In this document: piece by piece, positions 1 through 16,187 of the stretch
Layout: every line of letters starts with the position of its first letter
Numbering within the stretch: the first letter of the stretch is position 1
NCBI GenBank assembly: GCA_023665425.1
Contig: JAMPDX010000001.1
Coordinates: forward strand, 811,988 to 875,987
Direction: 5' to 3'
Length of the DNA: 64,000 bases
Source: Muribaculaceae bacterium
GTDB taxonomy: Bacteria; Bacteroidota; Bacteroidia; Bacteroidales; Muribaculaceae
Position numbers and translations under genes: made by a program
The notes under the pieces: generated by a model
What the model was told of the DNA's origin: nothing
The model's database searches: none
What the model saw: the letters and a program-made list of their open reading frames with translations, nothing else

Positions 1-955
1 TCTTTTGCTTTGAATTATTTTTCTTAGGCTTCCCTTTAGAGGGAGTCAAGGCAGCCTCTCCCGGCTTGTGGAGTACACCCAAGAAAAGCCCTTCACCCAC
101 AGTGCGGTGGGGCATAAATCGCAGGGCGGACAATGAGCTGTCTATGCTCCCGGGGATATCAAACTCCGCGTTGAGCCCAAGGTCGATATTCTCAGCGCCC
201 AATTCTTCCATGGCATACCTCAAGATGGACTCATCTTCATACTTATTAAAGGTACAAGTGCTGTATATGAGGTATCCGCCGGGCCGAAGGGTCTGCCACG
301 CATTCGTGATGATTTCCTGCTGCAACTCGGCGCAGCGGGTCACCAGCCCCGGTGACCATTGGCGGCGTGCCTCCTCATCCTTGCGCATCATACCCTCGCC
401 GGAGCAGGGTGCATCAACAGCCACAATGTCAAAAGCCCCTTTGAGATTACGATATGCCGAAGTGTCACCACAGGTGACGGCAAAATTTGGATACCCCCAT
501 TTGGTCAGATTTTCTACAAGAATGGCGGCGCGTGCGGGCACAAACTCGTTAGCCACTACAAAGGCCTCCTCAGGCAAGACCGACAAAGCCGCTGTTGTTT
601 TGCCTCCCGGCGCGGCGCACATATCAAGATACCGCAAATCCTTCCTGCCGAGCTTGTTCACGATGCGCTCGATGACAGCTGTCATAATCATCGAAGCCGG
701 CTCCTGCACATAGAACGCCCCACCATGCCAACCCGGCATAAGCGTAAACTGTGGCCGCTCCGCAAGCACCCGCCCCATATCACACCAAGCCACCGGCGCA
801 CCGTCAAAATCCTTCGACTTGCGAGGGTTCAGACGCACACCCACCACCGGAGCCGTATTTTCCAATGCCTCGACAAGCGCCGAGCACTCCTCCGCGCCCG
901 GGCACACCTTCATCTCCTCAATAAAACCCTCAGGTATCCGTGTATCCATATTCAT
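1..955 (-). CDS. RsmB/RsmF-type (NOL1/NOP2/Sun family) SAM-dependent RNA cytosine-C5 methyltransferase; the C-terminus runs off the left edge of the window
   Basis: Absent from the ORF track because no stop lies in the window. Hand translation of the minus strand from ATG 955-953 gives MNMDTRIPEGFIEEMK...RYLDMCAAPGGKTTAAL...FDIVAVDAPCSGEGMMRKDEE...PGGYLIYSTCTFNK. These are the AdoMet-binding motif and both catalytic-Cys motifs of this family. Track ORFs 66..713(+) and 359..967(+) are its antisense shadows. Confidence 0.8.
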   Translation of the reverse strand, partial: MNMDTRIPEGFIEEMKVCPGAEECSALVEALENTAPVVGVRLNPRKSKDFDGAPVAWCDMGRVLAERPQFTLMPGWHGGAFYVQEPASMIMTAVIERIVNKLGRKDLRYLDMCAAPGGKTTAALSVLPEEAFVVANEFVPARAAILVENLTKWGYPNFAVTCGDTSAYRNLKGAFDIVAVDAPCSGEGMMRKDEEARRQWSPGLVTRCAELQQEIITNAWQTLRPGGYLIYSTCTFNKYEDESILRYAMEELGAENIDLGLNAEFDIPGSIDSSLSALRFMPHRTVGEGLFLGVLHKPGEAALTPSKGKPKKNNSKQK

Positions 956-958
956 CTG

Positions 959-966
959 CAAAGTTA
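959..966 (-). promoter_or_regulatory. Bacteroidetes -7 promoter box (TAACTTTG on the minus strand) 3 nt upstream of the methyltransferase ATG
   Basis: Plus strand reads caaagtta, which is the reverse complement of TAACTTTG and matches the TAnnTTTG consensus. Confidence 0.4.
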
Positions 967-985
967 ACCATTTCCCGGCCAACCA

Positions 986-1025
986 CCAAAAGAGCGGTTG
1001 CAATCAGCACAGATTGCAACCGCTC
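986..1025 (-). terminator. Rho-independent terminator of the 930-aa surface protein gene
   Basis: Perfect 13-bp stem gagcggttgcaat/attgcaaccgctc (992-1025), followed on the minus strand by TTTTGG. It lies 30 nt downstream of the stop at 1055. Confidence 0.65.
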
Positions 1026-1054
1026 ACATCGGTTAGGAAGGATGTAGAAATCGT

Positions 1055-3847
1055 TTATTTCACCATGACTTTGACAACGGACCCATCGGAGAGACGGATG
1101 ATGTTCATCTGTCCGCGAACCGGAGCATTGTGGCGTTGGCCATCTACAGTATATATTTCAGCATTGCTAAGATCAACGTCGTTGAGCACGGTGCTGATAC
1201 CGGATGCCTTGATTTCTTCAAGCATCTTCTTGATGGCTGCAGAGAGTGTGTCATAGTCTACCTGAGACTCATAGAGGCCCTCCTGCTCAACATCCTCATA
1301 CTCCTTATTGCAAGCATCGATGGTTGCTTGCAACTGCTGACGCATATTTGAGACATATTCGCTGTCAATAAACTCCGGATACAGAGTCTGCACTGTAAGC
1401 AGTGCGGCATTGAACTCGTTCTCAAGTTTGTCTATGAGCTTCAAGTCAGTATCGTATGCCTTGTCATTGAGGTCTTGACGATATGCCTCTGCAGCAGCCG
1501 GAACAAGCTCAGAGATGCGTTCTTCGAGTGCGGTAGTGTTGAGGTCATAGCTATAAGTGCCGGCAGTTGCAACTGCGTTGTAAGCGTTGGTAGCAGCAAG
1601 CTTCATCATGTCGATCTGAGTCTGAATATAGTTCTCAGAGTTAGTGTCTTGGAAGCCGTTGTACTTCTCACGAACCTCAGCCTTGGCGGCATCGAGTTGA
1701 GCCTGCAAGCCTGCGAGCTTCTGCAGGTCAGCCTCCCAAGCAGCCTTGTTGGCAGCCTGACGAGCTGACTCGTTAGCGCGAGCGGCAGCATCGGGTACGA
1801 GAGAGGCAATCTGAGCCTCCACAGCAGTGATGTCGAGAGTATAATCGTAATTGCCCTCATTGGCAACAGCCTCATAAGCCTTGTTTACAGCCTGTGTGAG
1901 AGCATCGATGGCATCCTGAGCAGCCTTCTCGGCAGCGGGGTCTGCAAAGTCAGCATACTTCTCAGCTATCTCAGCCTTGGCAGCATCGAGTTGAGCCTGC
2001 AGGTCAGCGAGCTTCTGCAGGTCAGCCTCCCAAGCAGCCTTGTTGGCAGCCTGACGGTCAGCCTCAGCTTTGGCGCGAGCGGCAGCGTCGGGTACGAGAG
2101 AGGCAATCTGAGCCTCCACAGCAGTAGTGTCGAGAGTATAATCGTAATTGCCCTTATTGGCAACAGCCTCATAAGCCTTGTTTACGGCCTGAGTGAGAGC
2201 ATCGATAGCATCCTGAGCAGCCTTCTCGGCAGCGGGGTCTGCGAAGTCGGCATACTTCTCAGCTATCTCAGCCTTGGCGGCATCGAGTTGAGCCTGCAAG
2301 CCTGCGAGCTTCTGCAGGTCAGCCTCCCAAGCATTTTTGTTTGCTGTCTGGCGGTCAGCCTCTGCGGCTTTAGCCTGAGCATCAGTGAGCAGAGCATTAA
2401 TCTGAGCCTCTACAGCGGCAGTGTCGGGATTATACTCATATCTACCGTCCTCGGCCACAGCCTCGTAAGCCTGTTCTGCCTGAGTGCGGAGAGCATCAAT
2501 AGCATCCTGAGCAGCCTTCTCAGCCGCTTCATCGCGATATGCAGGATAAGTGTCAGCTATTTGCTGCTTAACAGTATCGAGTTGCTGCTGCAGCCCGTCG
2601 AGGAGTGCTACTACGGCATCGTATGCTGCCTTGTTGTCAGCACGACGCTGCACCTCGGCATTCTGAGCTGCTTGAGCATTTGAGAGGTATGTATCGATGT
2701 CGGTAGAGATACCGGCGGAAGGAGCGAGTACATTCTCATAGTCTGCTGTGAGAGTATGCTCTTCGTATGCCTTCTCGATAGCCTCACGCAGAGCATCAAT
2801 ACGGCCCTGAAGTTCTGCTCCATCATAATTGTCAGCTACTAAGGGGCAGTCAGTCTTGATAGTCTGCAGAGTGTTGTCAAGCTTCTGTTGCAGTGCGTCC
2901 ACTACAGCCAAGGCTGCCTGATGAGCCCCCTTGCCATTAATTATGTTGACAGTGCATCCCTCTCCATAGATAGTCTTGTTATTGGAGTTGGACATTTCAA
3001 AGCCCTGAAGTGACAATGTGGCATTGTCAGCCTCAAAATCAGAGGCGGCTACCAGAGTGAAACTAAAAATCTCACCCTGGCCGGTGGGGATGATGTTGTT
3101 GCCGTTATAGTCAACAATCACCACGCCATAAGTGACGCCATCTGCACGCTTGGTGACATTCACGGCCGAGCCGTTAGAGACACGGTTAGTGATATTTATC
3201 TGGTCGCCAAGGATAGAGAAGCCTTGAGGCACCACAATCTCCATTTGCAGACCACGCACATCGAAGTCGTTAGCCAACGATACCTCAACATTACGTGTGG
3301 CACCGGGGTTCATAACCATCTCCTGCTCAAGGGTGGAGAGGATGCCGCTGCCGGACTGTACAGATACATTGGTTACGGTTGATGTCTCACCCGGCAGGCG
3401 TGTGCCCTGCGCAGTTGAATACACAATGTCGGAGAGTGTAATAGTAGCATCGGCACCATTGGCGATGTCGGCAGCTGAAGCCTCAATCTCAAGCCATGCC
3501 AGTGTGCCGGAAGTGCCTACGAAGGTATTACGGCTTCCACTGGTGACCAGGAACAGGCCTTTGCTGTTGTAGCTCAAATTCTGGCCGATGCTGAGACGCT
3601 CGGAGTTACGCTCTACACCTGCAATCTTCCACCCCTCGGGCAGATTGACATTAAATTGCAGGCCGGCAAGGTCAGGAGTATTGTCAAGCTCAATGGCCAC
3701 ACGTGTGGTAGTGGCGCCGGAGAGATTGAAGTCGTTTATATAGAGCTTATTCGTCTGTTGTGCTTGAGCTGTCAGTCCAAATGTGCCCAGCAGGCACACC
3801 AAGGCCATAACAAGACGGGTAGCTCCTATATGTGTTAATATTTTCAT
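1055..3847 (-). CDS. Secreted helical-repeat surface protein: signal peptide, two cohesin-like beta modules, six ~98-aa alpha-helical modules, T9SS-like C-terminal tail
   Basis: Track ORF 1055..3856 starts at a TTG; the first ATG is at 3847 (MKILTHIGATRLVMALVCLLGTFGLTAQA). Domain calls come from sequence patterns in the translation. No catalytic motif was seen. Confidence 0.85.
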   Translation of the reverse strand: MKILTHIGATRLVMALVCLLGTFGLTAQAQQTNKLYINDFNLSGATTTRVAIELDNTPDLAGLQFNVNLPEGWKIAGVERNSERLSIGQNLSYNSKGLFLVTSGSRNTFVGTSGTLAWLEIEASAADIANGADATITLSDIVYSTAQGTRLPGETSTVTNVSVQSGSGILSTLEQEMVMNPGATRNVEVSLANDFDVRGLQMEIVVPQGFSILGDQINITNRVSNGSAVNVTKRADGVTYGVVIVDYNGNNIIPTGQGEIFSFTLVAASDFEADNATLSLQGFEMSNSNNKTIYGEGCTVNIINGKGAHQAALAVVDALQQKLDNTLQTIKTDCPLVADNYDGAELQGRIDALREAIEKAYEEHTLTADYENVLAPSAGISTDIDTYLSNAQAAQNAEVQRRADNKAAYDAVVALLDGLQQQLDTVKQQIADTYPAYRDEAAEKAAQDAIDALRTQAEQAYEAVAEDGRYEYNPDTAAVEAQINALLTDAQAKAAEADRQTANKNAWEADLQKLAGLQAQLDAAKAEIAEKYADFADPAAEKAAQDAIDALTQAVNKAYEAVANKGNYDYTLDTTAVEAQIASLVPDAAARAKAEADRQAANKAAWEADLQKLADLQAQLDAAKAEIAEKYADFADPAAEKAAQDAIDALTQAVNKAYEAVANEGNYDYTLDITAVEAQIASLVPDAAARANESARQAANKAAWEADLQKLAGLQAQLDAAKAEVREKYNGFQDTNSENYIQTQIDMMKLAATNAYNAVATAGTYSYDLNTTALEERISELVPAAAEAYRQDLNDKAYDTDLKLIDKLENEFNAALLTVQTLYPEFIDSEYVSNMRQQLQATIDACNKEYEDVEQEGLYESQVDYDTLSAAIKKMLEEIKASGISTVLNDVDLSNAEIYTVDGQRHNAPVRGQMNIIRLSDGSVVKVMVK
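1058..1198 (-). other. T9SS-type C-terminal sorting domain (putative)
   Basis: C-terminal ...AEIYTVDGQRHNAPVRGQMNIIRLSDGSVVKVMVK has the beta-strand pattern and K-x-x-x-K end typical of Por_Secre_tail domains. Not HMM-verified. Confidence 0.55.
1677..2267. repeat. Two near-identical tandem DNA copies (294 and 297 bp), each encoding one helical module; more diverged copies flank them (about 1200-2930 in total)
   Basis: The string tcagccttggc(g/a)gcatcgagttgagcctgca recurs at 1677, 1971 and 2268. The protein repeat is ANKAAWEADLQKLA.LQAQLDAAKAEIAEKYADFADPAAEKAAQDAIDALTQAVNKAYEAVAN.GNYDYTLD.TAVEAQIASLVPDAAARA. Confidence 0.9.
2927..3751 (-). other. Two tandem cohesin-like beta-sandwich modules (about residues 37-166 and 174-305 of the track ORF)
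   Basis: Patterns such as RVAIELDNTPDLAGLQFNVNLPEGWKI...GTLAWLEIEA and RNVEVSLANDFDVRGLQMEIVVPQGFSI...GEIFSFTLVA resemble the cohesin strand pattern. This is a by-eye assignment only. Confidence 0.45.
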
Positions 3848-3904
3848 CTTTATCAATTCTATAAGATGTTAGCCCGGATAACGCATTGTCAGTCAATTAG
3901 AAAA

Positions 3905-3960
3905 AGGATGTGGCCGGTTGTCTCTGACCGGAACAATTGGCTTACGACACCCGGCCACAA
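3905..3960 (-). terminator. Putative terminator of the 2091-aa gene
   Basis: Inverted repeat tgtggccgg (3909-3917) / ccggccaca (3951-3959) with an inner ccgg hairpin, followed on the minus strand by CATCCTTTTTC. Confidence 0.5.
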
Positions 3961-4074
3961 ATTCCCCGAAATCAACTAACTTAAAAGTTGCCTTTCAATC
4001 AAACGTTCTACTCTAAAAAAGAGATAGCTTTTTAGAATGTGGGAACTTCTTACATTATCCAATTTACGCATCTA

Positions 4075-7000
4075 TCATTTACGCATTTCTTTAGTGACAG
4101 AACCATCCTTGTGGCGGATGATGTTGATACCGCTCTTGAGCGATTGCAGGCGGCGGCCGGCAGCATCATAGATGCTCATGACACCATCCTTGACGTAATC
4201 GTAGATCGCATCCAGAGTTGAGGTGTGAGCCTTGGAAATCTCATGGATGTTATTGTCGGTATCGGTGAACATTGCATCGGAGATGGTGAGGTCACCCTTA
4301 CCCTCAACTTGGATGAAGAGGATAGTACCATCCTGGCCGGTAAAGACTGCATTCTGCATGGAGGCGAGGATGACGCGGCTGTAGTCGTAGTTGTCAAACA
4401 GATATGCGTCATGTGCCTCTGTGCGCTCTACAGTAGCCACACCTGTCACCTTGGCATCGCCGGAGGTGCGGATGTCAAACTGTGCTGCTGTGTAAGCGGT
4501 CATGTTGGAGAGTGCTACAGCGTATGTGCGTACACCATCCTCTTCGCCTACGAGAGCTACTGACATTGAGTCATCACTCTTGACAGCCGGCTTGTAGGCC
4601 TTCACACGTACCACTTGTACTTCATCACCCAGGATCATGGAGATGAGGGAGGTGACGTCGGCCACATTGAGCTTGTCATTGCCATCAACATCGGCGGCAC
4701 ATGCCTGGCGAGGATTCTCGGCATAGAGCTCATCGTAAGTCATGCCCTCACCAATAAAGTTGATGAGCATCTGTACGTCAAGCACATTGACTTCGCCATT
4801 CTCATCGAGGTCAACATCGCCAACCACAAATGAGTTATCCTGAGCTGAATCGTTGATCTTCTTAAATTCCTCAACCAAGGCTTTGGCCTCCTCGGCAATC
4901 TGAGCCAGGCGGTCATCGTCGGCATAACGTGACTCTAATTGCAGGTTCTCAAGAGTATCGTTCAGTGTATCGAACTGCTTTTTGAGCTCTGCGCGTACAG
5001 CCGGCACAATAGAGAGGTTTGTCAGCTTATCATTAGCATCATTTCTGGCCTCAGTGGCATTGCTGAGCTCTGCATTAGCCAAATACTTGACGGTTTTGTG
5101 CTTGTATTTGGCGATATCAGACTCAATTTCATCACCCTTGAGCAGTGTGCTCTCAGCAGTGAGGGCGTATGCTGCCTTGTCACTTTCGAGCTGAGCAAGA
5201 GCATCATCGAGCAGATTCTGTATTCTTTCAGCGGTAGGACTGAGTATCTCGGCGATATTATAGCCATAGCCTTCGGCCAGTGTCTTGGCATCCTCAAACT
5301 CTTTGAGCAGCTCCTCATACTGAGCATACAGCACGGCATACTGATTGTCGCTTGCCTCTTGCTGAGCCTTCTGCTCTTGTGCTTTCTGCTCCTCAGCTGC
5401 AACCTTAGTGTTGAGCTCGTTGAGAGCTGTCTCTATCTCATTGAGAGTCTTGGTGTAATAGCCCTCACGTGCCAAGATGCGGTCTCCATCGTCGCTCCAA
5501 TCTACCTTGGTGTCGTCGAGTTCTGACTGAAGAGCCTCATACTCACCGGCAAACATCTCTTGGACGCTATCCATACATCCGTCGAGTGTGGCTTTGCCGC
5601 TGTCAATTTTCGATTTGAGTGTATTATAATTATTGTTGAGCTTGTCAAGCAGAGCAGTAGCGGGATTAGGCTCTATGGGATTTTGCTTCTGGCCCCATGC
5701 AGTCTTCAGCATGACATACAGGCGGCAGAGCTCTGTCTCATAACCAACCAGCTCATCCTTCTGTGCGGCAGGATTTGCAGAGTCGTAGTTTCCGCCGAGG
5801 GCATCGATGCCATTTCCTTGCTTGGTGATTTGAGCATCGATATTGGGGTAAGTCTCGCCCTCAGGGAGAGTAGCATCAGCCTCGTAGGCATCGTTGAATG
5901 CAACCTTAGTATTGTTGAGCAGAGTGCGCAAGAAGAACACCTCGGCATCATAAGCAGTCGTATAGGCTTTGTTTATCTCACCTATGATACCCTCGTACTC
6001 ACCCTCAAGGCCTTCATCACCGAATGCAGTGCCCAGACGGCCCAGATTAGCTTTTACGGTAGCTTCGAGCAGCTCGATAGCCTCGCGGATATTCTTAAGT
6101 TCTCTCTCCAGAATTTTCTCCGGACTATCCTCCTTACTTTTCTCTGTGACTGCGCAGCCACTCAGGCTGTTGCAGTAGTCTACAAGAGCCTCGTAAGTTG
6201 AATTCATGTCAGGCAGCCACTTGTCATAGAAGTTATTCTGGAGCGTTTGATCCTCAACATTGAGGTCATTGATCTTCTTGACTTCATCGCGCAAGCCCTG
6301 CAGGTTCTCGATTATAGCATCAAGGGTTTCCTTATCCTCTTTATACTCATTGATGAGGTCTTTGCTATCAATAGCCTGTTGATTAAGCGCAATAGCAGTG
6401 TTCTCATATTCTTGGAAGGCAGTGTTTACGGCAGCCTTGACATCGGGGTCTGCATTATCATAAGAGGCGATATCGGCCTTCAGCTCCTTGATGGTCTTGT
6501 CTGCGATCTCCCATGTAGCAGTCCATGCATCCTCAGCAAACTTCTGAAGGTCAATGGCTCCGGCTACTTCATCGAGCTCGTTGCATATCTCATCCATCTT
6601 CTTTGCCAAATGCTCTTCTTCACCTACTGCGTCATAATATCTATGTGCTTGGGCCAGATAAGATATGGCTTCTTTCAGGTAGTCTTCAGGGTCAATGCCT
6701 GCATTGGTCAGAGCTTTATCTGCATCGCTAATTGCAGTCTCAGCCTTTCCATTCAGCTCGTCATAATATTTAGCTGCCAATGAGTCTAACTGATCCCACA
6801 GATCGCTTAGATCTGCTTCGATGCTATCATGGATTGCAACGCATTTATCTTTCCATTCTTGATACTCATCGTTGGTGATTACATGGTTGTCTGCAGTCCA
6901 CGCAGCAAACGCCTTCTTACCTTCATCGTCCAGGTTATGGATTTCCTGGTAGTATTTGAATAGAGTCTCGTGGCGCTTTACTTCGTCGTGTATATAAGCT

Positions 7001-10000
7001 CTCCAACCGTGATTTTCTTCGGAATCTCCCTCTCCATAGTAGTAAGTATTATATACTTTTATAGCATCACGATACTGGCTTAGGAGACTGTTGATCTTGT
7101 CGTTCCAATCACCTGTAGTAGTATTGTTAGCGGTTTCTACAGCCTTGTGCAGACCATTCTCATAGAAGAATTCGTTGTATTGGTCTTGAGCCAAATCCTC
7201 TATGCGCTGATATTCAGCCATGATGTCTGAGTGGGCACCATTTGAATTACCTTTGCCATACTCATTGGTAACTACTACATTTTCAGCAGCGATGTCATTG
7301 TCAATGAGGTTTCGCAGAGGAGTGGTCCATTTGTCAATAACTTCCTGGCTCAGGCCGGCTTCGATTGCACTCTTAGTAATAGCAGCGATCACACTCTCGA
7401 TATAGGTGCGCACCTCTTTCTCACGAACAATCTGGTCATTGTGTGCCTTATTGTTCTTTTCGATGTCCATACGAGTATTGGCGATATTGCCAATAAGGTT
7501 TTGTACCCGATAAGTATAGCCTTCCTCAGCGCTCATGTCGGCAACGACGGTGCCGTCAGCAAGAGACTTCTCAAGGGCATCTTTGATTGTGTTCCACTCG
7601 GACTGAATACCGGCGATAACACCTTTCTCGCCGCCATAGTATTCCAATGCCGGAGGAAGAGAAGTGTTCTCATTATATGCAGTCAGATTATCAATCTGAG
7701 TCTGCAAATAGTCGAGAGTGGAGACAAGGCTATCGTATGCAGCCTGGTTGGCTTTAGCAACTGTGAGTTTCTTATTATACTCGGCGAGCTTATCAAGGAA
7801 CTTGATGATTTTGCCATCTACAACACCGAGGTCCTTGGTGGTGGCTGTATCAACTATCTCGGCCAAGATGTTAGTGAGCTCAGTTTCCAGAGGTTTGGTA
7901 GTAGCGGTAGCTGTTCCCAAAGTAAACTTGGCTACGTTGGTTACATTGTCAGCCACAGCCTGGTCATAAGCGGCGATGAACGCATTAAGTTCCTTCTGAG
8001 CATAGTCGCCGTTGAGCTTTGAAGCCTCATAAGCGAATTTCTGCTCTACAGAGGAGACTGTTATTGTCTCGTTGCCGTCAGTATATTGCAGCTCGGTGAT
8101 ATTCTGGAGCTTATTCTTAAGGGCAATAAGGAGGTCCCAACTATCCTGACCTTTCGCACGTTTTGCCTCATTAAGTGATGTCTTGTATCCGACGAGTTCC
8201 TTGTAGAACTTGCCGGACTCACCTGCATAGTCCTCAAGATATTTTGCCTTAAGATCTATTACAGACTGCAGTGTCTTGATCTCCTTGCCGTTGACAAAGG
8301 CAGTGAAGTCGGTAAAGTTACTATTAAAAGTATTGAGTTTCTTTATAACTGTTACAAAGTCAGCTGCCATATTCTCAGCGTTCTCCTGAGTATCGCTGAT
8401 GGCTGTTTTGATAGCATCGGTAACAGCGCTATCATCGCATTGATCTTTTGTCAGAGCGAGAATACCATTCTTGATAGTGTCGAAGCCGGTTTGCCACTTG
8501 TCAATGATGTTGACTTCATTCTCATTCAAGAGCGTGGCTGTTTCGCCATCACCGGCATTAAGATTCTTGACAGCAGTAACAGCTGGCTCCCACCACTCAA
8601 TGAGCAGATTGTTAACAGTCGCAGCCTTAGCACACAATGTGTTGATGTCGTTGATCTTTTTATTAATATCGGCTATTTGAGAAGTGTAATCATCATCATC
8701 AAGATTCAGAATATGTTTCTCATATTTGCCATCCACATAAGTGCTGAATGTATTGATTGCAGTACCCAGAGCAGACACCTCTGCATAGAATTCTGATGCA
8801 AAAGATGCATCAACAAACATATTGTTGAAATTACTATACTGGGCATTGAAATCGTTGATCTGCTGCTGAGCCGTAGTCATGTTCTCATTCTGAGTCTCGA
8901 CGAGGTTATTGAGAGCCTCGGTCATGGATGTAAACTTAGTGATTACAGCCTCAAGTTTGTCCTTGTTCTCATCTTTTACGGTAGCCCATGCACCCTCCGG
9001 GAACAGATAGCCCTTGCCGGTATTATATTCTGCATTGGCGCCTTTGTTTGAGAAAAGGTCGTTGCCATCGGAGGTGGTGAAACCTACGTTCTCCTCACTC
9101 TTGGCGATATCCTCATATACTGTGGGGAACTTGTCAACTCCTTTAGCAGCATTGAGAGCTTCTATGTAGGCATTGTATTCATTCTCAAGCTTGGTGTTGA
9201 GGATGAAGTTTACCTCATAATACAGGTTATAGTTGGCCTTCAGCTGATTAAAGGCTGCGTTGAGTTTTGTGTTCGTGGCATTAAGCTCCTCGTACTGAGA
9301 TGCGAAAGTGATGTCCTTTCTCAGGCCCTCTCTCTTAGACCATTTGTCGTCGTCGTAGGGGAAGGCCTTCTTAATATCGGCCTCATAGTCTTCAATAGCA
9401 GTCTTTTGAGCTTCGGCTTCGCTCAGCAGGTCTGCTTTAACCTCGTCGGGAGCCTGTTCCCAAGTATTGATGTCATTAATCAGAGTATTGATAGCCTCGA
9501 CGAGTTTACCCTGTCCGTCAAGAAGAGAAGTGCGGTCTGCCAGATTGGCAAGATACTTGTCGAAGATAGTATTCTCATTCAATACTTCTTCGTTATATGT
9601 ATTGATCTCTGCCCCAAGGGCGGTTAAATATGCTTGAAGGTCGTTAGTCACCTTGTAGAAGCCATATTTTTTGTATGTAGCAATCGACTCGCTAAGTGAT
9701 GCAGTACCACCAATCTTGAGAACCTCTTGCCATACATTATCCCAGGCAGTGACTGTCTGGCCATCTGCTCCTGAGGTCTCGTAGTTTGCGAGTTTGTTTT
9801 CGATTACAGATTTTTTATTTCTGAGCTTATCAGCCTCCTCGAAGCCATCGTCAGCATTAACATCTTCCAGTGCTATATCATTGAGCCCTGCAAGTTGTTT
9901 CTGAAGGTCTGCTGTAACAGCCTTTGCATCGAACACCAGCTTGATAGTTTGGCCTACGAATGAGAAGCCCATAGACTTGTCATCCGCACCAATCTCAAGT

Positions 10001-10350
10001 GTGGCGCCGGCATCGCCGGTAATTTTGAATGAGTAGGAATATCCGGCTGTGCCTGAACTTCCTTCGTCAAGAGAGAGTGTATCGCCATTTACTTTGATGT
10101 AGCAATTGACAGGCTTTGCCGAAAATACAATTTTGTATTTGCCAACGGGAAAATTTGCAGCTTCCAAGTTTGTGGTAATTGAACCGGTACCTACGGTACA
10201 AGTGTAACTGCCACCCTCCCATTTGTTCTGATCTCCGGTAGCACCATATTGATCCCACGAAGTCTTTGTAGGGAATCCTATATTGATGTCAGCGAGAGCC
10301 GGAAAGGCTATCGGGGTCATCAAAAGAGGAATTAGGACTTTCTTTTGCAT
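4075..10350 (-). CDS. Giant (2091 aa) secreted alpha-helical fibre-like protein: signal peptide, N-terminal beta-rich head, ~1650 aa helical region, dockerin, cohesin-like module, T9SS-like tail
   Basis: Uninterrupted 6.3-kb ORF with ATG at 10350 and signal peptide MQKKVLIPLLMTPIAFPALA. The long central region is nearly free of Pro, Gly and Cys and rich in Asp, Glu, Asn, Lys, Ala, Leu and Tyr. C-terminal modules are read from the translation. Confidence 0.9.
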   Translation of the reverse strand: MQKKVLIPLLMTPIAFPALADINIGFPTKTSWDQYGATGDQNKWEGGSYTCTVGTGSITTNLEAANFPVGKYKIVFSAKPVNCYIKVNGDTLSLDEGSSGTAGYSYSFKITGDAGATLEIGADDKSMGFSFVGQTIKLVFDAKAVTADLQKQLAGLNDIALEDVNADDGFEEADKLRNKKSVIENKLANYETSGADGQTVTAWDNVWQEVLKIGGTASLSESIATYKKYGFYKVTNDLQAYLTALGAEINTYNEEVLNENTIFDKYLANLADRTSLLDGQGKLVEAINTLINDINTWEQAPDEVKADLLSEAEAQKTAIEDYEADIKKAFPYDDDKWSKREGLRKDITFASQYEELNATNTKLNAAFNQLKANYNLYYEVNFILNTKLENEYNAYIEALNAAKGVDKFPTVYEDIAKSEENVGFTTSDGNDLFSNKGANAEYNTGKGYLFPEGAWATVKDENKDKLEAVITKFTSMTEALNNLVETQNENMTTAQQQINDFNAQYSNFNNMFVDASFASEFYAEVSALGTAINTFSTYVDGKYEKHILNLDDDDYTSQIADINKKINDINTLCAKAATVNNLLIEWWEPAVTAVKNLNAGDGETATLLNENEVNIIDKWQTGFDTIKNGILALTKDQCDDSAVTDAIKTAISDTQENAENMAADFVTVIKKLNTFNSNFTDFTAFVNGKEIKTLQSVIDLKAKYLEDYAGESGKFYKELVGYKTSLNEAKRAKGQDSWDLLIALKNKLQNITELQYTDGNETITVSSVEQKFAYEASKLNGDYAQKELNAFIAAYDQAVADNVTNVAKFTLGTATATTKPLETELTNILAEIVDTATTKDLGVVDGKIIKFLDKLAEYNKKLTVAKANQAAYDSLVSTLDYLQTQIDNLTAYNENTSLPPALEYYGGEKGVIAGIQSEWNTIKDALEKSLADGTVVADMSAEEGYTYRVQNLIGNIANTRMDIEKNNKAHNDQIVREKEVRTYIESVIAAITKSAIEAGLSQEVIDKWTTPLRNLIDNDIAAENVVVTNEYGKGNSNGAHSDIMAEYQRIEDLAQDQYNEFFYENGLHKAVETANNTTTGDWNDKINSLLSQYRDAIKVYNTYYYGEGDSEENHGWRAYIHDEVKRHETLFKYYQEIHNLDDEGKKAFAAWTADNHVITNDEYQEWKDKCVAIHDSIEADLSDLWDQLDSLAAKYYDELNGKAETAISDADKALTNAGIDPEDYLKEAISYLAQAHRYYDAVGEEEHLAKKMDEICNELDEVAGAIDLQKFAEDAWTATWEIADKTIKELKADIASYDNADPDVKAAVNTAFQEYENTAIALNQQAIDSKDLINEYKEDKETLDAIIENLQGLRDEVKKINDLNVEDQTLQNNFYDKWLPDMNSTYEALVDYCNSLSGCAVTEKSKEDSPEKILERELKNIREAIELLEATVKANLGRLGTAFGDEGLEGEYEGIIGEINKAYTTAYDAEVFFLRTLLNNTKVAFNDAYEADATLPEGETYPNIDAQITKQGNGIDALGGNYDSANPAAQKDELVGYETELCRLYVMLKTAWGQKQNPIEPNPATALLDKLNNNYNTLKSKIDSGKATLDGCMDSVQEMFAGEYEALQSELDDTKVDWSDDGDRILAREGYYTKTLNEIETALNELNTKVAAEEQKAQEQKAQQEASDNQYAVLYAQYEELLKEFEDAKTLAEGYGYNIAEILSPTAERIQNLLDDALAQLESDKAAYALTAESTLLKGDEIESDIAKYKHKTVKYLANAELSNATEARNDANDKLTNLSIVPAVRAELKKQFDTLNDTLENLQLESRYADDDRLAQIAEEAKALVEEFKKINDSAQDNSFVVGDVDLDENGEVNVLDVQMLINFIGEGMTYDELYAENPRQACAADVDGNDKLNVADVTSLISMILGDEVQVVRVKAYKPAVKSDDSMSVALVGEEDGVRTYAVALSNMTAYTAAQFDIRTSGDAKVTGVATVERTEAHDAYLFDNYDYSRVILASMQNAVFTGQDGTILFIQVEGKGDLTISDAMFTDTDNNIHEISKAHTSTLDAIYDYVKDGVMSIYDAAGRRLQSLKSGINIIRHKDGSVTKEMRK
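4078..4215 (-). other. T9SS-type C-terminal sorting domain (putative)
   Basis: ...VMSIYDAAGRRLQSLKSGINIIRHKDGSVTKEMRK is similar in pattern to the tail of the neighbouring 930-aa protein. Confidence 0.55.
4231..4569 (-). other. Cohesin-like beta module following the dockerin
   Basis: SMSVALVGEEDGVRTYAVALSNMTAYTAAQFDIRTSGDAKVTGV...GTILFIQVEGKGDLTISDAMF. By-eye resemblance to cohesin. Confidence 0.4.
4621..4821 (-). other. Dockerin module (duplicated Ca-binding segment)
   Basis: GDVDLDENGEVNVLDVQMLINFI ... ADVDGNDKLNVADVTSLISMILG. Both halves fit the dockerin type I repeat. Anchor checked on DNA: ctcatcgaggtcaacatcgcc at 4801-4821 is the reverse complement of GGC GAT GTT GAC CTC GAT GAG. Confidence 0.75.
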
Positions 10351-10472
10351 TTAGTAAAATTTTAATTAGTTGTGTTATTTATTTGTTTAAAAAGATTCTA
10401 TTTTGTAGATATATGATACGATAAGGCGATGTTTTCGCTCAATTAACTATATATCTGTACAGACTTCGGATG

Positions 10473-10480
10473 CAAAGTTA
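10473..10480 (-). promoter_or_regulatory. Bacteroidetes -7 box (TAACTTTG) for the 2091-aa gene, giving a leader of roughly 115 nt
   Basis: Plus strand reads caaagtta at 10473-10480. Confidence 0.4.
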
Positions 10481-10636
10481 TAGAAAAAAGTTCGATTTAC
10501 CCCCCCAAATGTTAAATTATGTTAAAAGAAATGTTAAAGAGGTTTCAAAGTGCTTTTAAAAGTGTAAATTATGCGGCTTATAAAATTGAGTGTCAGGAGG
10601 TTAGATCTATCAAAAAATAATTTCAAACAGAGGCAA

Positions 10637-10838
10637 TGCAAGCGCTCCGCGCTTGGGTGGTATGTATGCAAGCTCTCCCCACGAAGCTCATGCCTATCGG
10701 CATTCGCATATCGTGGGGCTAAAATAATGCAAGCGCTCCGCGCTTGGTGGATGTATGTATGACTCACCCCACGAAGCTCATGCCTGTCGGCATTCGCATA
10801 TCGTGGGGTTAAAACAGTGCAAGCGCTCCGCGCTTGGG
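10637..10838. repeat. Tandem repeat, 2.2 copies of a 90/91-nt unit containing nested palindromes
   Basis: Units start at 10637, 10728 and 10818 (the last is partial). Each unit has hairpin caagcgc-tcc-gcgcttg and a larger hairpin ccccacga...atgcc-tatc-ggcat...tcgtgggg. Confidence 0.9.
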
Positions 10839-10914
10839 GAGTATATTAGGAAACTCTATCCACCGACCTGTGTGGATGTCCTATCCGCAGGTCCGGGGGA
10901 TATCGGGGTGGGGA

Positions 10915-12456
10915 TTAGGCGTTGGGGGTGTTGGTGACGCGCTCGAGCCATTTTACCATGGCGAACATGACGCCCATGGAGATGATGCAGACGGCGGCGA
11001 AGACGGCCCAAGCTACCCAGATGGGGGCGGCGTTGTAGATGAGCGGGCCTATCCACAGCAGGAGGTTACCTACGGCTGTGGCACCAAGCCATAGACCCTG
11101 ACACAGACCTTGCATGTGCTTGGGGGCTACCTTGGAGACGAAGGAGAGACCCAGAGGAGAGATGAACAGCTCGGCTACTGTCATGAAGAAGTAGTAGAGG
11201 ATAAGTACCCAAGGGCCGGCCATCATTGTGGCTTTGACTGCAGCGGCGAGGCCTTTGAAGTCGGTGGCTGAGGGATAGTTCATCACCAGTGAGAAGATCA
11301 TCATGAAGATGTATGCGATACTTGCCAGACCCATACCGATAGCAATCTTGCGGGGGGTGGATATCTCCTTGCCGCGGCGTGAGAGGGCGCTGAAGATGGC
11401 CATGATGATGGGGGTGAGCAGGATAACGAAGCAGGGGTTCATAGCTTGCCATATTTCGGGGGGTATGGCTGAGGTGTCCATGAAGTCGCGTGCAAACAGT
11501 GACATGGAGGTGCCGTTCTGGTGGAATGAGAACCAGAAGAAGATGGCGATACCGAGCACTGCAAACAGGGCATACATGCGCTGCTTGATCTCTTTGGCCA
11601 TGGCAGCTTTTTCTGCCGGGGTATAATTGGCTGTCTCTGTCTTGGCTTTTACTGAGGGATTGGGCAGCCCTTTCTTGGTGACGGCGAAGATGCACAGTGA
11701 GATCATCATGGCAGCCACTGAGGCTATGAAGGAGTAGTGCACACCGGTGTTGAAGACTTCGAGGTAGCGGGTGCAGAACTCTTGTATTTCGACCTTGCTG
11801 GCGATAGATCCACCCATGCCGGTGATGATGCTGTAGAAGTTGTTGATGGTCTCATTGGTCATGGAGTCGGCGTTGCTCAGGAATGCGTGACACATTGCGG
11901 GGAAGTCGCCATTGTATACCAGCCCGTTGGTATCGAGCCACCATGAGCGGAGCATGGGGGCGATGAACGGGGCGAGCACACCACCTATATTAATAAATAC
12001 GTAGAAGATCTGGAAACCGGCATCGCGCTGTGAAGCATACTTCGGGTTGTCATAAAGCTGACCCACGATAGCCTGCAAGTTACCCTTGAACAGACCGTTA
12101 CCGAATGCGATAAGGAACAGGGCGAAGCAGGTCAAGCTCAAGAGCCATACTTTGTTGTCCGGAGTGCTAAGGATAGGCACTGCGAGCACTACATATCCGA
12201 GAGTCATGATGATAAGGCCCTGGATAATAGTACGCTTGTAGTTTTGTGTCTTGTCGGCTATTACACCACCAACAAGAGACAACACGTAAATTCCGGCGTA
12301 GAAGAACGAGTAAATCAGAGTACTTGTCTCCTCGCTAAGTCCAAACTTGGAGCACAGGAAGAGCACGAGCACGGCGTTCATGATGTAGTAGCCGAAGCGC
12401 TCGCCCATGTTGCTCAAAGCCGCAGGAATAAGTCCTTTTGGTTGATTTTTGAACAT
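10915..12456 (-). CDS. Proton-dependent oligopeptide transporter (POT/PTR2 family, DtpT-like)
   Basis: 513-aa polytopic membrane protein. N-terminal GERFGYYIMNAVLVLFL and FYVFINIGGVLAPFIAP match the PTR2 signatures. Confidence 0.9.
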   Translation of the reverse strand: MFKNQPKGLIPAALSNMGERFGYYIMNAVLVLFLCSKFGLSEETSTLIYSFFYAGIYVLSLVGGVIADKTQNYKRTIIQGLIIMTLGYVVLAVPILSTPDNKVWLLSLTCFALFLIAFGNGLFKGNLQAIVGQLYDNPKYASQRDAGFQIFYVFINIGGVLAPFIAPMLRSWWLDTNGLVYNGDFPAMCHAFLSNADSMTNETINNFYSIITGMGGSIASKVEIQEFCTRYLEVFNTGVHYSFIASVAAMMISLCIFAVTKKGLPNPSVKAKTETANYTPAEKAAMAKEIKQRMYALFAVLGIAIFFWFSFHQNGTSMSLFARDFMDTSAIPPEIWQAMNPCFVILLTPIIMAIFSALSRRGKEISTPRKIAIGMGLASIAYIFMMIFSLVMNYPSATDFKGLAAAVKATMMAGPWVLILYYFFMTVAELFISPLGLSFVSKVAPKHMQGLCQGLWLGATAVGNLLLWIGPLIYNAAPIWVAWAVFAAVCIISMGVMFAMVKWLERVTNTPNA

Positions 12457-13810: not shown

Positions 13811-14866
13811 TTAGTATTTGGTGGTCTTTATGATACAGCCGTTTCGGTCCATCTCAATTCTGTAGCGCGACTTGTCTTTCAGTACAATGGTGAATATGGT
13901 GCCGAGACGCCCACCGTACAGCATGTCACCCCCGGTTATATATCCTTTGTCTTGCATTCTCTGAAGAATTGCCAACGGACGCCCTACAAAATCGCGTTTC
14001 TTGTAAACCTCGGCCGCAACATCTCTCGGACCTTGATGTTCCTCCCTTATTTTTTTAAGCTGTCGGTCATAGTATGTATAGATGAAGGTATTGTCACCTA
14101 TTCTGTCTGCTGCTTTCCAACCGACATGATTGCCTTTCTGGTCGTAATATGCTTTTAATTGAACGCCGTCGGTCAAAGTGATATGATTACCGGAGGGCGT
14201 GTAGTAAGTTCTTATGTTACCATTAACGGTTTTGGTGACAAGAAAATCGCCGAGTCCCGCACGTATATAGCTTACGTTTCCCGCACCAAAGGGATAGGTG
14301 TGTATTATTTCCCCTTCTGTATTAGCCAAAATTGTGTTATTGTCATCTAAAGTTGCTAAAACATAGTCTACATTGCGGAAAATAAGAATATCTTTGTATT
14401 TCACAGGCAGAATTTCTTTTCCGTCGGCTTTTAAAAATCCCCAATTGCCTTTGTTATCTTTTACAGCCATGTAACCTCCTTTGTAGTATTGGGAACTGTT
14501 GGTAGTATTTTCAATTTCTGAATATTTTCCTATCACTTCACCGGTCTCCACGTTTACAAGCACTATTGAGTTGTCATCATCGGAATTTAATTCGCGATAC
14601 AATTGTGCAAGTTTGTCTTGGCTGCCTTCTATATTACTGAATGAGGAGTATATTCCAATAAAATTCAGGTCTTTGTCAAAGAAAGCCGAATAGGAATTCG
14701 TATATGTTATATATTTTTTAGTCCATAACGTGTCTGATTCCCATATATTGCCTGTTTTTGTCAGTGGACTTGTTTCATTATTCTCAATGGAATAGATGAA
14801 GTATTGCCCGGCTTTTTCAATCAGATAGTACCCGTCTTTCACCTCAGAAACCAATTTGAAATTCAT
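13811..14866 (-). CDS. WG-repeat (KWG-type beta-repeat) protein with no signal peptide
   Basis: 351 aa with repeats such as GNWGFLKADGKEILPVKYKD. The region is AT-rich. Confidence 0.75.
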   Translation of the reverse strand: MNFKLVSEVKDGYYLIEKAGQYFIYSIENNETSPLTKTGNIWESDTLWTKKYITYTNSYSAFFDKDLNFIGIYSSFSNIEGSQDKLAQLYRELNSDDDNSIVLVNVETGEVIGKYSEIENTTNSSQYYKGGYMAVKDNKGNWGFLKADGKEILPVKYKDILIFRNVDYVLATLDDNNTILANTEGEIIHTYPFGAGNVSYIRAGLGDFLVTKTVNGNIRTYYTPSGNHITLTDGVQLKAYYDQKGNHVGWKAADRIGDNTFIYTYYDRQLKKIREEHQGPRDVAAEVYKKRDFVGRPLAILQRMQDKGYITGGDMLYGGRLGTIFTIVLKDKSRYRIEMDRNGCIIKTTKY

Positions 14867-14917
14867 CGGTGAACTGCTTACTTCGCTGTTTATAAGGTCA
14901 ACCAGAACTCTGCATCC

Positions 14918-15391
14918 TTAGGTTTCATTCTGCAAGAGCAGGTATAGATGTTTTCCGTCATTAGACCATACATGGTTTGAAGTGTTTGCGGCAAAAGGCA
15001 GTACTGTCACTCCCTTTTTAGTTATAAATATATATTGGTATTTACTTTCTTCGTTATTGCGTACTGATGAAATTATCAAGTCATCAGCTAAAGGTTGCAG
15101 GTTATTTACATACAGGAATTTTTCCGGTATCACTTGCTTGCCTTTCGCGTCTATCAAGATACTGTAGCGGTCAGCGCCGTCTGCCCATGCGTATTGTTTG
15201 CCGTTCGCCTTGAGCTCGGCAAACTGTCCGGCCCATGTGTATGCCGGCTTGATTTTCCATTTCCCCGTTTAGTCAACATATCCCCACAAGCCGGTTTTGG
15301 GGTCTTGATGTGGTGTGAGATTGGTTTTGGCAGCCCATGATGTGACGGCGCACATCATCACTGCGAATAAGATTAAAAGTCGTCTTTTCAT
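14918..15391 (-). pseudogene. Secreted WG-repeat protein gene interrupted by an in-frame TAA at codon 41
   Basis: Hand translation from ATG 15391 gives MKRRLLILFAVMMCAVTSWAAKTNLTPHQDPKTGLWGYVD*TGKWKIKPAYTWAGQF.... This continues in the same frame into track ORF 14918..15157. The stop is at 15271-15269. Confidence 0.65.
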
Positions 15392-15410
15392 GTGTTTGTT
15401 GTATTGGTTT

Positions 15411-16187
15411 TTAATTTGTTGTTTCTTTTGAGATTACTGTTGTCATAAACCTGAATTTTGAGCCGATTGCCACTCCGAATTTAGATATGTCTGTTTTGTC
15501 GTATGACGTATCTTCCCATGTGAATTTATATGTGTTGTCTAATGAGAAAGACCGGTGGCTGTCAATAATCTTTTTACTTATGCTCTGCCAATGCACATCT
15601 TTTACCTCGTGATTTTCATATAATGCAAACCGCGAATGAGCCACCGTATCGGATTTAGGCTTTTCCCAAAACAGATGATTGTTGGTAATTATCATCGCAA
15701 TGCCCCCTACTATATTGGGATACATTTTGGTCAATGCCTCTATTCTCCGTATGTCCTTGCAATAATTATATGAGACAATATCCACAGCTCCTTGATTTTT
15801 GAGCATGCAAACTTGCGATTTCATCTTGCTGCCGAAACGAGTATTATTCCACAGCCCTTTCGGCAGATTGCGTGTCGCATATTTGAGCTCCAACAAAGCA
15901 TAACGTTCATCTTGGCGAACTACAATATCAACATAAATATCATTCGCCCATGGAAAATTTCCCCGGGAGTCTGTATCGTCCTCAAAACATAGTTCATTGA
16001 AAGGAACCGCGTATTCAACCATAACATCGTCGTATCTGTTCTCGCAGCTTTTCAAGTACATGGCTAAACGTACCTGCAAATCCCTTTCGTTCATCAGGGG
16101 AGTGTCAAGGTCTTTTGCGAACCGGGAAACGTCTTCATGGAGCGATTGCAGTAAATCCGTATGGTCAGTTGTTGTCATCATCTTCAT
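15411..16187 (-). CDS. PD-(D/E)xK-like nuclease-fold protein (258 aa), function unknown
   Basis: Motif order is E58 (VMVEYAV) ... D87 (IYVDIVV) ... E100-L-K102 (ALLELKY) with canonical spacing, followed by a ~90-aa C-terminal domain of unknown type. Confidence 0.6.
   Translation of the reverse strand: MKMMTTTDHTDLLQSLHEDVSRFAKDLDTPLMNERDLQVRLAMYLKSCENRYDDVMVEYAVPFNELCFEDDTDSRGNFPWANDIYVDIVVRQDERYALLELKYATRNLPKGLWNNTRFGSKMKSQVCMLKNQGAVDIVSYNYCKDIRRIEALTKMYPNIVGGIAMIITNNHLFWEKPKSDTVAHSRFALYENHEVKDVHWQSISKKIIDSHRSFSLDNTYKFTWEDTSYDKTDISKFGVAIGSKFRFMTTVISKETTN

Follow-up and report, generated by a model that had tools for sequence, protein, structure and literature searches.

A 64-kb stretch of DNA from a mouse-gut Muribaculaceae bacterium (64,000 nucleotides of contig JAMPDX010000001.1, hereafter the window) carries two large genes, here called A and B, which lie side by side on the minus strand and fill positions 1055-10350. 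B is the upstream and A the downstream gene, and neither is named beyond 'hypothetical'. We report here that A and B are a real, conserved and uncharacterised two-gene module, a new variant of the non-cellulosomal cohesin-dockerin systems. Cohesin-dockerin assembly is understood almost entirely from the cellulosomes and amylosomes of Firmicutes. A conserved, enzyme-free cohesin-dockerin pair would show the same connector building surface architecture in a major Gram-negative gut lineage. An earlier interpretation made from the letters of the window, without database searches (the sequence-only reading), had proposed that A and B are long surface stalks cross-linked by cohesin-dockerin contacts and exported by the type IX secretion system (T9SS); the present analysis bears this proposal out in part. 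The features of the two genes are as follows (aa, amino acids; E, expectation value; z, z-score; dG, folding free energy).

1055-3847, minus strand: gene A, for a predicted secreted protein of 930 aa that combines two cohesins with a stalk of helical repeats and a tail at the C-terminus (ATG at 3847, stop codon at 1055-1057)
3761-3847, minus strand: signal peptide of A, 29 residues, MKILTHIGATRLVMALVCLLGTFGLTAQA, by inspection of signal-peptidase-I type look and without a canonical lipobox
3353-3754, minus strand: cohesin-like module 1 of A (AlphaFold2, Foldseek, profile match to 2xdh, hhalign to the B module)
2936-3349, minus strand: cohesin-like module 2 of A (same AlphaFold2/Foldseek model; profile match to 5n5p_A, E 0.004, over module 2)
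1205-2935, minus strand: helical stalk of A, six repeats of ~98 aa, 577 residues (autocorrelation, DNA tandem repeat, composition)
1058-1204, minus strand: C-terminal tail of A, 49 aa, SGIS...IYTVDGQ...GQMNIIRLSDGSVVKVMVK, a putative minimal sorting tag resembling those of T9SS type A
992-1025, minus strand: terminator-like hairpin after A (z -6.6; T-run next to it)
4075-10350, minus strand: gene B, for a predicted secreted protein of 2091 aa that runs from a beta head through a helical stalk to a dockerin, a cohesin and a tail
10291-10350, minus strand: signal peptide of B, 20 residues, MQKKVLIPLLMTPIAFPALA; its MQKK start is kept in nearly all B-type orthologs
9916-10290, minus strand: N-terminal beta-rich head of B, ~125 aa, conserved in orthologs
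4846-9915, minus strand: helical stalk of B, ~1690 aa (heptad periodicity, without sequence repeat)
4621-4821, minus strand: dockerin of B, two calcium-loop plus helix segments (Pfam PF00404 above cut-off)
4222-4569, minus strand: cohesin-like module 3, in B (AlphaFold2, Foldseek, hhalign to the A module)
4078-4218, minus strand: C-terminal tail of B, 47 aa, ...IYDAAGRRLQSLKSGINIIRHKDGSVTKEMRK, ending GINIIRHKDGSVTKEMRK (alignment with homologs, profile comparison)
3904-3967, minus strand: terminator-like hairpin between B and A (dG -30.7 kcal/mol, z -3.6), followed by CCUUUUUC

The longest open reading frame (ORF) of A, 1055-3856, begins at a TTG and would encode 933 aa; the ATG at 3847 is the likely start and gives 930 aa. 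GenBank entry MCM1319367.1 (hypothetical protein NC217_03185, from a Muribaculaceae metagenome-assembled genome) has the same length of 930 aa and was 100% identical to A over the 296 residues searched. The 98-aa period of the A stalk is strong, protein autocorrelation at lags of 98 and 197 giving z-scores of 12-15. Repeat anchors fall on residues 408, 506, 605, 703 and 797 (in the numbering of the 933-aa frame), and at the DNA level there is a 297-bp tandem repeat of 2.9 copies with 85% identity. Its composition is dominated by Ala (22.8%), followed by Asp (9.7%), Glu (8.7%), Gln (8.0%) and Tyr (5.3%). The layout that had been read from the letters, namely a signal peptide, two beta modules, six helical repeats of ~98 aa and a tail, was thus recovered throughout, with a tail of 49 aa.

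For B, the order of parts likewise stood as proposed (signal peptide, beta head, long helix, dockerin, third beta module and a tail similar to that of A), with some 17 residues separating the dockerin from the cohesin. The description of its helix needed correction. In the stretch sampled, Pro (1.2%) and Cys (0.5%) are indeed rare, but the helix had been called almost free of Gly as well, which at 4.7% was an overstatement. Nor is the helix a sequence repeat, since autocorrelation revealed no internal repeat and its only periodicity is that of the heptad (lag 7, z 5.7). Family searches with the head of B gave weak matches only, to PA14 (7mjr, E 0.0035), a collagenase-type collagen-binding domain and DUF4397. 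The sequence-only reading had also taken the system to be free of enzymes, and Pfam scans of A, B and four B orthologs turned up neither catalytic nor carbohydrate-binding domains. A hairpin with a T-run lies 3' of A and another 3' of B, in line with the claim that each gene has a terminator of its own.

Conservation of the B-A gene pair

To assess whether A and B occur together beyond the window, we collected gut Bacteroidales loci starting from either gene. Ten were reached through the dockerin-cohesin-tail cassette at the C-terminus of B (the window itself, L001 and L002-L009) and five independently through members of the A family. In all 15 an A-type gene has a B-type giant as its immediate upstream neighbour on the same strand, so the co-occurrence in related genomes on which the earlier proposal hinged was seen without exception. 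The genome scan, covering one genome per species, was seeded with a 4-sequence cassette alignment, a 10-sequence alignment being too divergent, and gave eight full-length cassette matches in genomes labelled Muribaculaceae, Muribaculum, Bacteroidales, 'Alistipes' and 'Porphyromonadaceae'. At all eight, a B-type gene of 2016-2109 aa with head, stalk and cassette is followed by an A-type gene with cohesin dyad, variable stalk and tail. The five contigs found through the A family, at identities down to 24-25%, have the B-type giant immediately upstream as well (2025, 2249, 2078 and 2088 aa, and one contig that is cut inside the tail), and the dockerin-cohesin-tail cassette was confirmed in all five. 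L001, reached separately as the contig that holds the closest homologue of the B C-terminus, has a frameshift-split B-type gene followed by a 1246-aa A-type gene.

Across the loci, complete B-type proteins are of near-constant length (2016-2249 aa). A-type proteins range from 391 to 1409 aa, corresponding to about 0 to 9 or more of the 98-aa modules as estimated from protein lengths. Where gene coordinates had been called, in six loci, 71-227 bp separate B from A. We found no third conserved neighbour around the pair, and the genomic contexts vary.

The split gene of L001 (4147-10755) is a side observation in its own right: it is present as ORFs of 1792 and 391 aa, the reading frame apparently being broken by a frameshift or stop immediately ahead of the dockerin cassette, and could reflect an assembly error, a pseudogene or a programmed break.

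The wider family was revealed by an exhaustive HMMER search with the double module of A, as word-indexed searches under-sampled it (1, 2 and 5 matches) and a word-indexed search with the tail profile returned just short fragments without names. At E up to 1e-3 the cohesin-dyad family comprises 516 cluster representatives (50% identity). Among the best 150 of these 516, 99 end in the tail and 22 carry dockerin-type calcium loops, which indicates that cohesin and dockerin travel together in this lineage. Every member found was annotated as 'hypothetical protein' or unnamed, and our literature search found no account of the two-gene module, just passing counts of dockerin and cohesin Pfam matches in Bacteroidales. 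Several paralogues (P0015, P0050, P0074, P0080, P0151 and others) have N-terminal cohesins and a C-terminal dockerin in one chain, the dockerin replacing the tail. Other members carry leucine-rich repeats, Big_2, Listeria-Bacteroides repeats, a bona fide Por_Secre_tail or DUF6383; the cohesin-dyad family is a versatile cohesin-headed scaffold for surface proteins.

Identity of the cohesins, dockerin and tails

Direct Pfam and NCBIfam scans of A, B and the isolated modules yielded nothing apart from the dockerin, and phmmer searches of the A modules against the PDB yielded nothing either. The beta modules were therefore placed through their homologues and their fold. Ten of 33 aligned homologues of the A double module match Pfam Cohesin at E up to 0.1, the best at 1.4e-10, and a profile of the 33-homologue alignment matches the solved cohesins 5n5p (E 0.004) and 2xdh (E 0.059). 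An AlphaFold2 model of the two A modules, built on the same alignment, reached a predicted local distance difference test score (pLDDT) of 94.3. Foldseek matched it in the PDB to the type II cohesin dyad 3l8q (E 2.5e-11), and the best single-domain matches were the cohesins 6kgf, 6kgc, 4dh2 and 2jh2, with target-normalised TM-scores of 0.72-0.75 and root-mean-square deviations (rmsd) of 2.6-3.0 A. Integrin and antigen I/II matches to the A modules had poor TM-scores.

The third module, in B, is related to the A module by profile-profile comparison (hhalign, 98.7%, E 2.3e-16). We modelled it as part of the C-terminal cassette, the last 256 residues of B, which gave a pLDDT of 81.7 and a predicted TM-score (pTM) of 0.72 with low-confidence linkers; block pLDDT was 86-96 over most of the module. 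Its top 19 PDB matches by Foldseek are all cohesins (2xdh, 2jh2 and 2vo8 among them), and 2vo8 was matched with a target TM-score of 0.74 and an rmsd of 2.6 A. The A modules and the B module alike have the flattened beta-sandwich (jelly-roll) fold of cohesins. Fold and transitive homology together identify each of the three beta modules as a divergent cohesin, one that lies below the Pfam cut-off. The cohesin assignment made from the letters therefore stood as regards fold and the match of homologues to Pfam Cohesin, but not as regards a direct Pfam score for the modules of A and B themselves.

The dockerin of B is a real dockerin. Residues 1847-1907 match Pfam Dockerin_1 (PF00404) at 23.6 bits against a cut-off of 22.9 (E 5.8e-5), so that the domain expected at 4621-4821 was recognised by the curated model. 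Orthologous segments scored 42.7 bits (L005) and 19.3 bits (L002), and a Pfam dockerin match was absent in orthologs L003 and L009. When a profile of 13 orthologous segments was searched, about 25 solved dockerins came first (4fl4_A, E 2.8e-8; CelS, CelD, Xyn10B and others), and calmodulin EF-hands ranked behind them, only from E 0.007. The segment shows the dockerin architecture of two tandem 12-residue, EF-hand-like calcium-loop plus helix units, with helices predicted at cassette residues 21-32 and 61-72, two further linker helices and a block pLDDT of 83-94 over residues 11-70. It had been called a textbook dockerin. The duplication is there and the second loop, DVDGNDKLNVAD, is canonical, but the first, DVDLDENGEVNVLD, has a 2-residue insertion that is missing from many orthologs, and the linker between the two loops is long.

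The C-terminal tails of A and B were compared with T9SS sorting domains through their relatives. Among 51 family tails there were five weak matches to TIGR04183 (best E 0.011) and one to PF18962 (E 0.086), and a profile of these tails weakly matches the sorting domains of RgpB (5hfs, E 0.015; 7pq4, E 0.036; 5ag8; 5ag9) and HBP35 (5y1a, E 0.27). Some cohesin-dyad paralogues have full-size tails in place of the short ones, and at E up to 1 TIGR04183 recognises 8 of 11 of these (best 1.5e-13). By hhalign, the short-tail profile aligned with the full-size paralogue tails at a probability of 91% (E 1.1e-6); the alignment spans the last 35 columns and has a gap that marks a missing internal strand. 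The last motifs of the sorting domain (IYD..G.. and G.Y.V....K...K) are found in the tails at the extreme C-terminus, as expected of homologues. The tails of A and B belong to two distinct, separately conserved subtypes, and among the four closest homologs of the B C-terminal cassette many invariant positions fall in the B-type tail. Our preferred reading of these comparisons is that the tails are reduced relatives of the T9SS type A sorting domain, corresponding to its C-terminal half, and it is plausible that they act as a T9SS signal. T9SS sorting-domain cargo in Muribaculaceae has been reported by a preprint (PMC13404670).

The profile of 51 tails also matches the C-termini of unrelated PDB proteins, namely the hexosaminidase 8bbl (E 8e-9), the GH43 arabinanase 4kca (E 7e-4) and 7jvi. 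As the same tail ends unrelated proteins, it is a portable, general C-terminal tag on diverse cargo. In these chains the tail occupies residues 851-901 of 8bbl_A (a beta-N-acetylhexosaminidase), 639-679 of 4kca_A and 796-841 of 7jvi_A (a beta-helix protein), and the shared pattern is TGI...IY.L.G....G.NI(I/V)...G..KV.VK. Structural data on the tag may already exist; our search for literature on entry 8BBL found no paper.

A model for assembly and its alternatives

We consider A and B to be a conserved gut Bacteroidales module that most likely builds a non-enzymatic cell-surface appendage, a reading to which we give a probability of about 50%. What the analysis shows is which domains are present, how they are laid out and that the two genes are strictly paired; the secretion route, the binding partners and the function we infer as follows. 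Sec would carry A and B across the inner membrane by way of their N-terminal signal peptides, and the short C-terminal tag, judging by its remote homology, probably directs export across the outer membrane and perhaps attachment to the surface. A would serve as a pedestal, its C-terminus towards the cell, its variable stalk of about 0 to 9 modules of 98 aa above it and its two cohesins at the far end. B would be the payload, a helical rod of near-constant length with a small beta-sandwich head at its N-terminus. The B dockerin would plug, calcium-dependently, into an A cohesin, as a cellulosomal scaffoldin does onto an anchoring protein, and the cohesin of B would stay free for another dockerin, on a further B molecule or on some other protein. 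Together they would form an adhesin-like structure without enzymes, a long fibril or coat whose binding head lies distally. If so, the fibres would be candidate mediators of adhesion (to mucus, food particles or other cells) and of interactions with phages or the immune system. More tentatively, a helical fibre of near-fixed length (~2000-2250 residues), carrying a half-size T9SS signal and plugged by cohesin and dockerin onto a pedestal whose height varies between strains, might represent an undescribed and widespread class of gut Bacteroidales appendage. It would then be the first functional cohesin-dockerin assembly in a Gram-negative lineage and would bring with it a new minimal variant of the T9SS sorting signal, an idea that we hold to be possible but on the unlikely side.

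In the clostridial cellulosome, the type I/II dockerin of a scaffoldin (e.g. CipA) docks onto the cohesins of the anchoring proteins SdbA, OlpB and OlpC, and this step is the closest functional analogy for the proposed docking of B onto A. In both, cohesin folds and a duplicated calcium-loop dockerin are spread over separate secreted proteins with neighbouring genes, and one of the proteins has several cohesins; the structural matches of A and B include 4dh2 (the OlpC cohesin), 3l8q (the cohesin dyad) and 4fl4. Unlike the clostridial systems, A and B belong to a Gram-negative Bacteroidales host, lack enzymes, carbohydrate-binding modules and surface-layer homology (SLH) anchors, have helical stalks in place of Pro/Thr linkers and end in a T9SS-like C-terminal tag. 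Their cohesins lie below the Pfam cut-off, and B combines a dockerin with a cohesin. A true cellulosome was rejected, since no enzymes or carbohydrate-binding modules are present.

Non-cellulosomal systems offer other likenesses. The Clostridium perfringens cohesins of glycoside hydrolase complexes (2jh2, 2vo8, 2o4e) and 2xdh of Archaeoglobus fulgidus are among the best matches of the B cohesin, and they share with A and B the use of cohesin and dockerin outside cellulose degradation. The A. fulgidus cohesin protein likewise has a cohesin and a dockerin in one chain. In contrast to A and B, the C. perfringens and A. fulgidus proteins are enzymes or small, and they have no ~1700-residue helical stalk, no cohesin-dyad partner gene and no Bacteroidetes secretion tag. 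With T9SS type A cargo such as RgpB and HBP35 of Porphyromonas gingivalis, A and B share a C-terminal beta-strand tag that ends in a K-x-x-x-K type motif. The final stretch of the type A sorting domain aligns with their motifs IY..DG.. and G.(N/Y)I.V, and where A has its short tail, paralogues of A have true TIGR04183 domains. Unlike such cargo, A and B have tails of 47-49 residues with about three predicted strands that fall below curated cut-offs, and their export is putative. The streptococcal antigen I/II and M-like fibrillar adhesins are a functional analogy only. In them too, a signal peptide is followed by a small beta head, then by a very long helical stalk and an anchor close to the cell, and the tandem repeats of variable number in the A stalk are adhesin-like as well, whereas A and B have no sequence relationship to them, a different cell envelope and a proposed attachment through cohesin-dockerin contacts and a T9SS-like tag.

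Several points weigh against the proposed appendage. Even when E values up to 10 are admitted, Pfam Cohesin (PF00963) matches neither A nor B nor the isolated modules, and at the same threshold TIGR04183 and PF18962 match neither protein, whole or as isolated tails. The tails, of 47-49 aa and about three predicted strands, compare with ~70-100 aa and seven strands in characterised sorting domains, and the tail of B was modelled as one short helix and three strands at moderate confidence (block pLDDT 73-78). No T9SS genes were found within the 64-kb window. The hairpin terminator that separates B from A in the window means that their co-transcription is not assured. For the docking of the B dockerin onto an A cohesin, it is gene adjacency alone that names the partners. 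There is also a problem of geometry: were both C-termini anchored, the B dockerin would sit near the membrane, far from the A cohesins at the far end of their stalk. Given this mismatch in height, it is more likely that A alone holds B, or that the partners are others.

Different partners are what one alternative supposes. The B dockerin might bind the cohesin of B itself, either within the molecule, as a closed or auto-inhibited base, or between molecules, as B-B chains or a lattice; the A cohesins would then receive dockerin proteins encoded elsewhere, A and B being co-regulated parts of a coat without direct contact. The ~17-residue spacing of dockerin and cohesin in B and the conservation of the dockerin-cohesin-tail cassette as a unit speak for this, as does the single-chain model, whose pTM of 0.72 despite low-confidence linkers is compatible with some fixed packing between the domains. 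The family members with dockerin-type loops of their own (22 of the best 150) provide other possible partners in the lineage. Yet B directly precedes A at every one of the 15 loci and no other neighbour is conserved, which argues for direct partnership, and we judge this alternative, self-binding of B with foreign partners for A, to be unlikely.

It could also be that the cohesin folds are generic beta-sandwich spacers or ligand-binding modules and the dockerin only a calcium-binding structural element, so that an adhesin or coat forms through other contacts, e.g. coiled-coil association of the helical regions. For many cohesin-like and dockerin-like modules outside cellulosomes, no partner is known to have been demonstrated, and such a role would suit the heptad periodicity of the B stalk, the position of A and B below the Pfam Cohesin cut-off and the Foldseek matches to integrin and antigen I/II domains. 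The latter have poor TM-scores, however, and the best single-domain structural matches are consistently cohesins, as are all of the top 19 for the B module. Homologues reach Pfam Cohesin (1.4e-10 at best), and cohesin and dockerin occur together across the family and in every locus examined. We therefore rate generic spacers lower still, as quite improbable.

Rather than a T9SS signal, the tail might be some other element of surface anchoring or assembly (e.g. a small beta motif to which a partner in the outer membrane or a further subunit binds), with export by another route. The sequence-only reading had named recognition of the tails as sorting domains as a point on which it would fall, and in this it did not hold up, as neither TIGR04183 nor PF18962 recognises them; what survives is remote homology to RgpB, HBP35 and the TIGR04183-positive paralogue tails. 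Failure in the curated models, the few and weak matches among 51 tails, a length about half that of known sorting domains and the two subtypes, which could indicate specific partners and not one shared machine, would all fit an element of another kind. Set against them are the hhalign match to TIGR04183-positive paralogue tails at the same position (91%, E 1.1e-6), the match of the tail profile to the RgpB and HBP35 sorting domains and the unrelated enzymes that end in the same tail, as expected of a general sorting tag. We give an anchoring or assembly element a lower but appreciable probability. The short tail is of interest by itself. Unrelated enzymes share it, and proteins with solved PDB structures are among those that end in it. 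Should it work as a T9SS signal, it would be a minimal one, useful for annotating cargo missed by current models and for engineering secretion.

Surroundings of the gene pair

The rest of the window is housekeeping in nature, with genes for ribosomal protein S2, PBP1A, TilS, GlmS, a fucosidase and peptidases. A POT-type transporter (10915-12456) and a SufE-like ORF were assigned by eye, and two ORFs are of rpoB/rpoC size, an assignment from length and position alone. Within the 64 kb we found no further ORF with a cohesin-like module, a dockerin loop or an A- or B-type tail and no dockerin-bearing enzyme, and no Rfam family was found in 900-11000. A mobile-element origin of the pair was rejected, as translated searches gave no match for the A cohesin dyad in phage records and none for the B C-terminal cassette in phage or plasmid records.

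Upstream of B and downstream of the transporter gene, at 10634-10844, lies a 90-bp tandem repeat of 2.4 copies with 89% identity. Each unit holds two hairpins, a perfect one, CAAGCGCGGAGCGCTTG, and a second, long one (CCCCACGA...TCGTGGGG). The perfect hairpin has three exact copies in the window, where chance would give none, and the unit had no Rfam match. The repeat could be an intergenic element resembling repetitive extragenic palindromic (REP) sequences, or stacked terminators. Further along, two minus-strand ORFs of 351 and 258 aa at 13811-16187 have no Pfam match at E up to 1e-5. The region from 14 to 16 kb is the lowest in GC of the window (39.9%, against ~50% elsewhere), and the ORF pair may be a small foreign insert.

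Gene B itself has a GC content of 44-49%, compared with ~50-53% for gene A and the surrounding genome, and a strongly negative AT skew. These features probably reflect the Lys/Asn/Glu/Asp/Ile-rich composition of the helix and not a foreign origin. Many ORFs of 100-230 codons run antisense to A and B on the plus strand of the window (e.g. 1991-2683, 4939-5526 and 5560-6201), and very long ones lie opposite the B-type genes of L007 (2429-8605, minus strand, 2058 codons) and L009 (4589-10756, minus strand, 2055 codons). These antisense ORFs are probably shadow frames that result from bias in the codon usage and amino-acid content of the helical regions.

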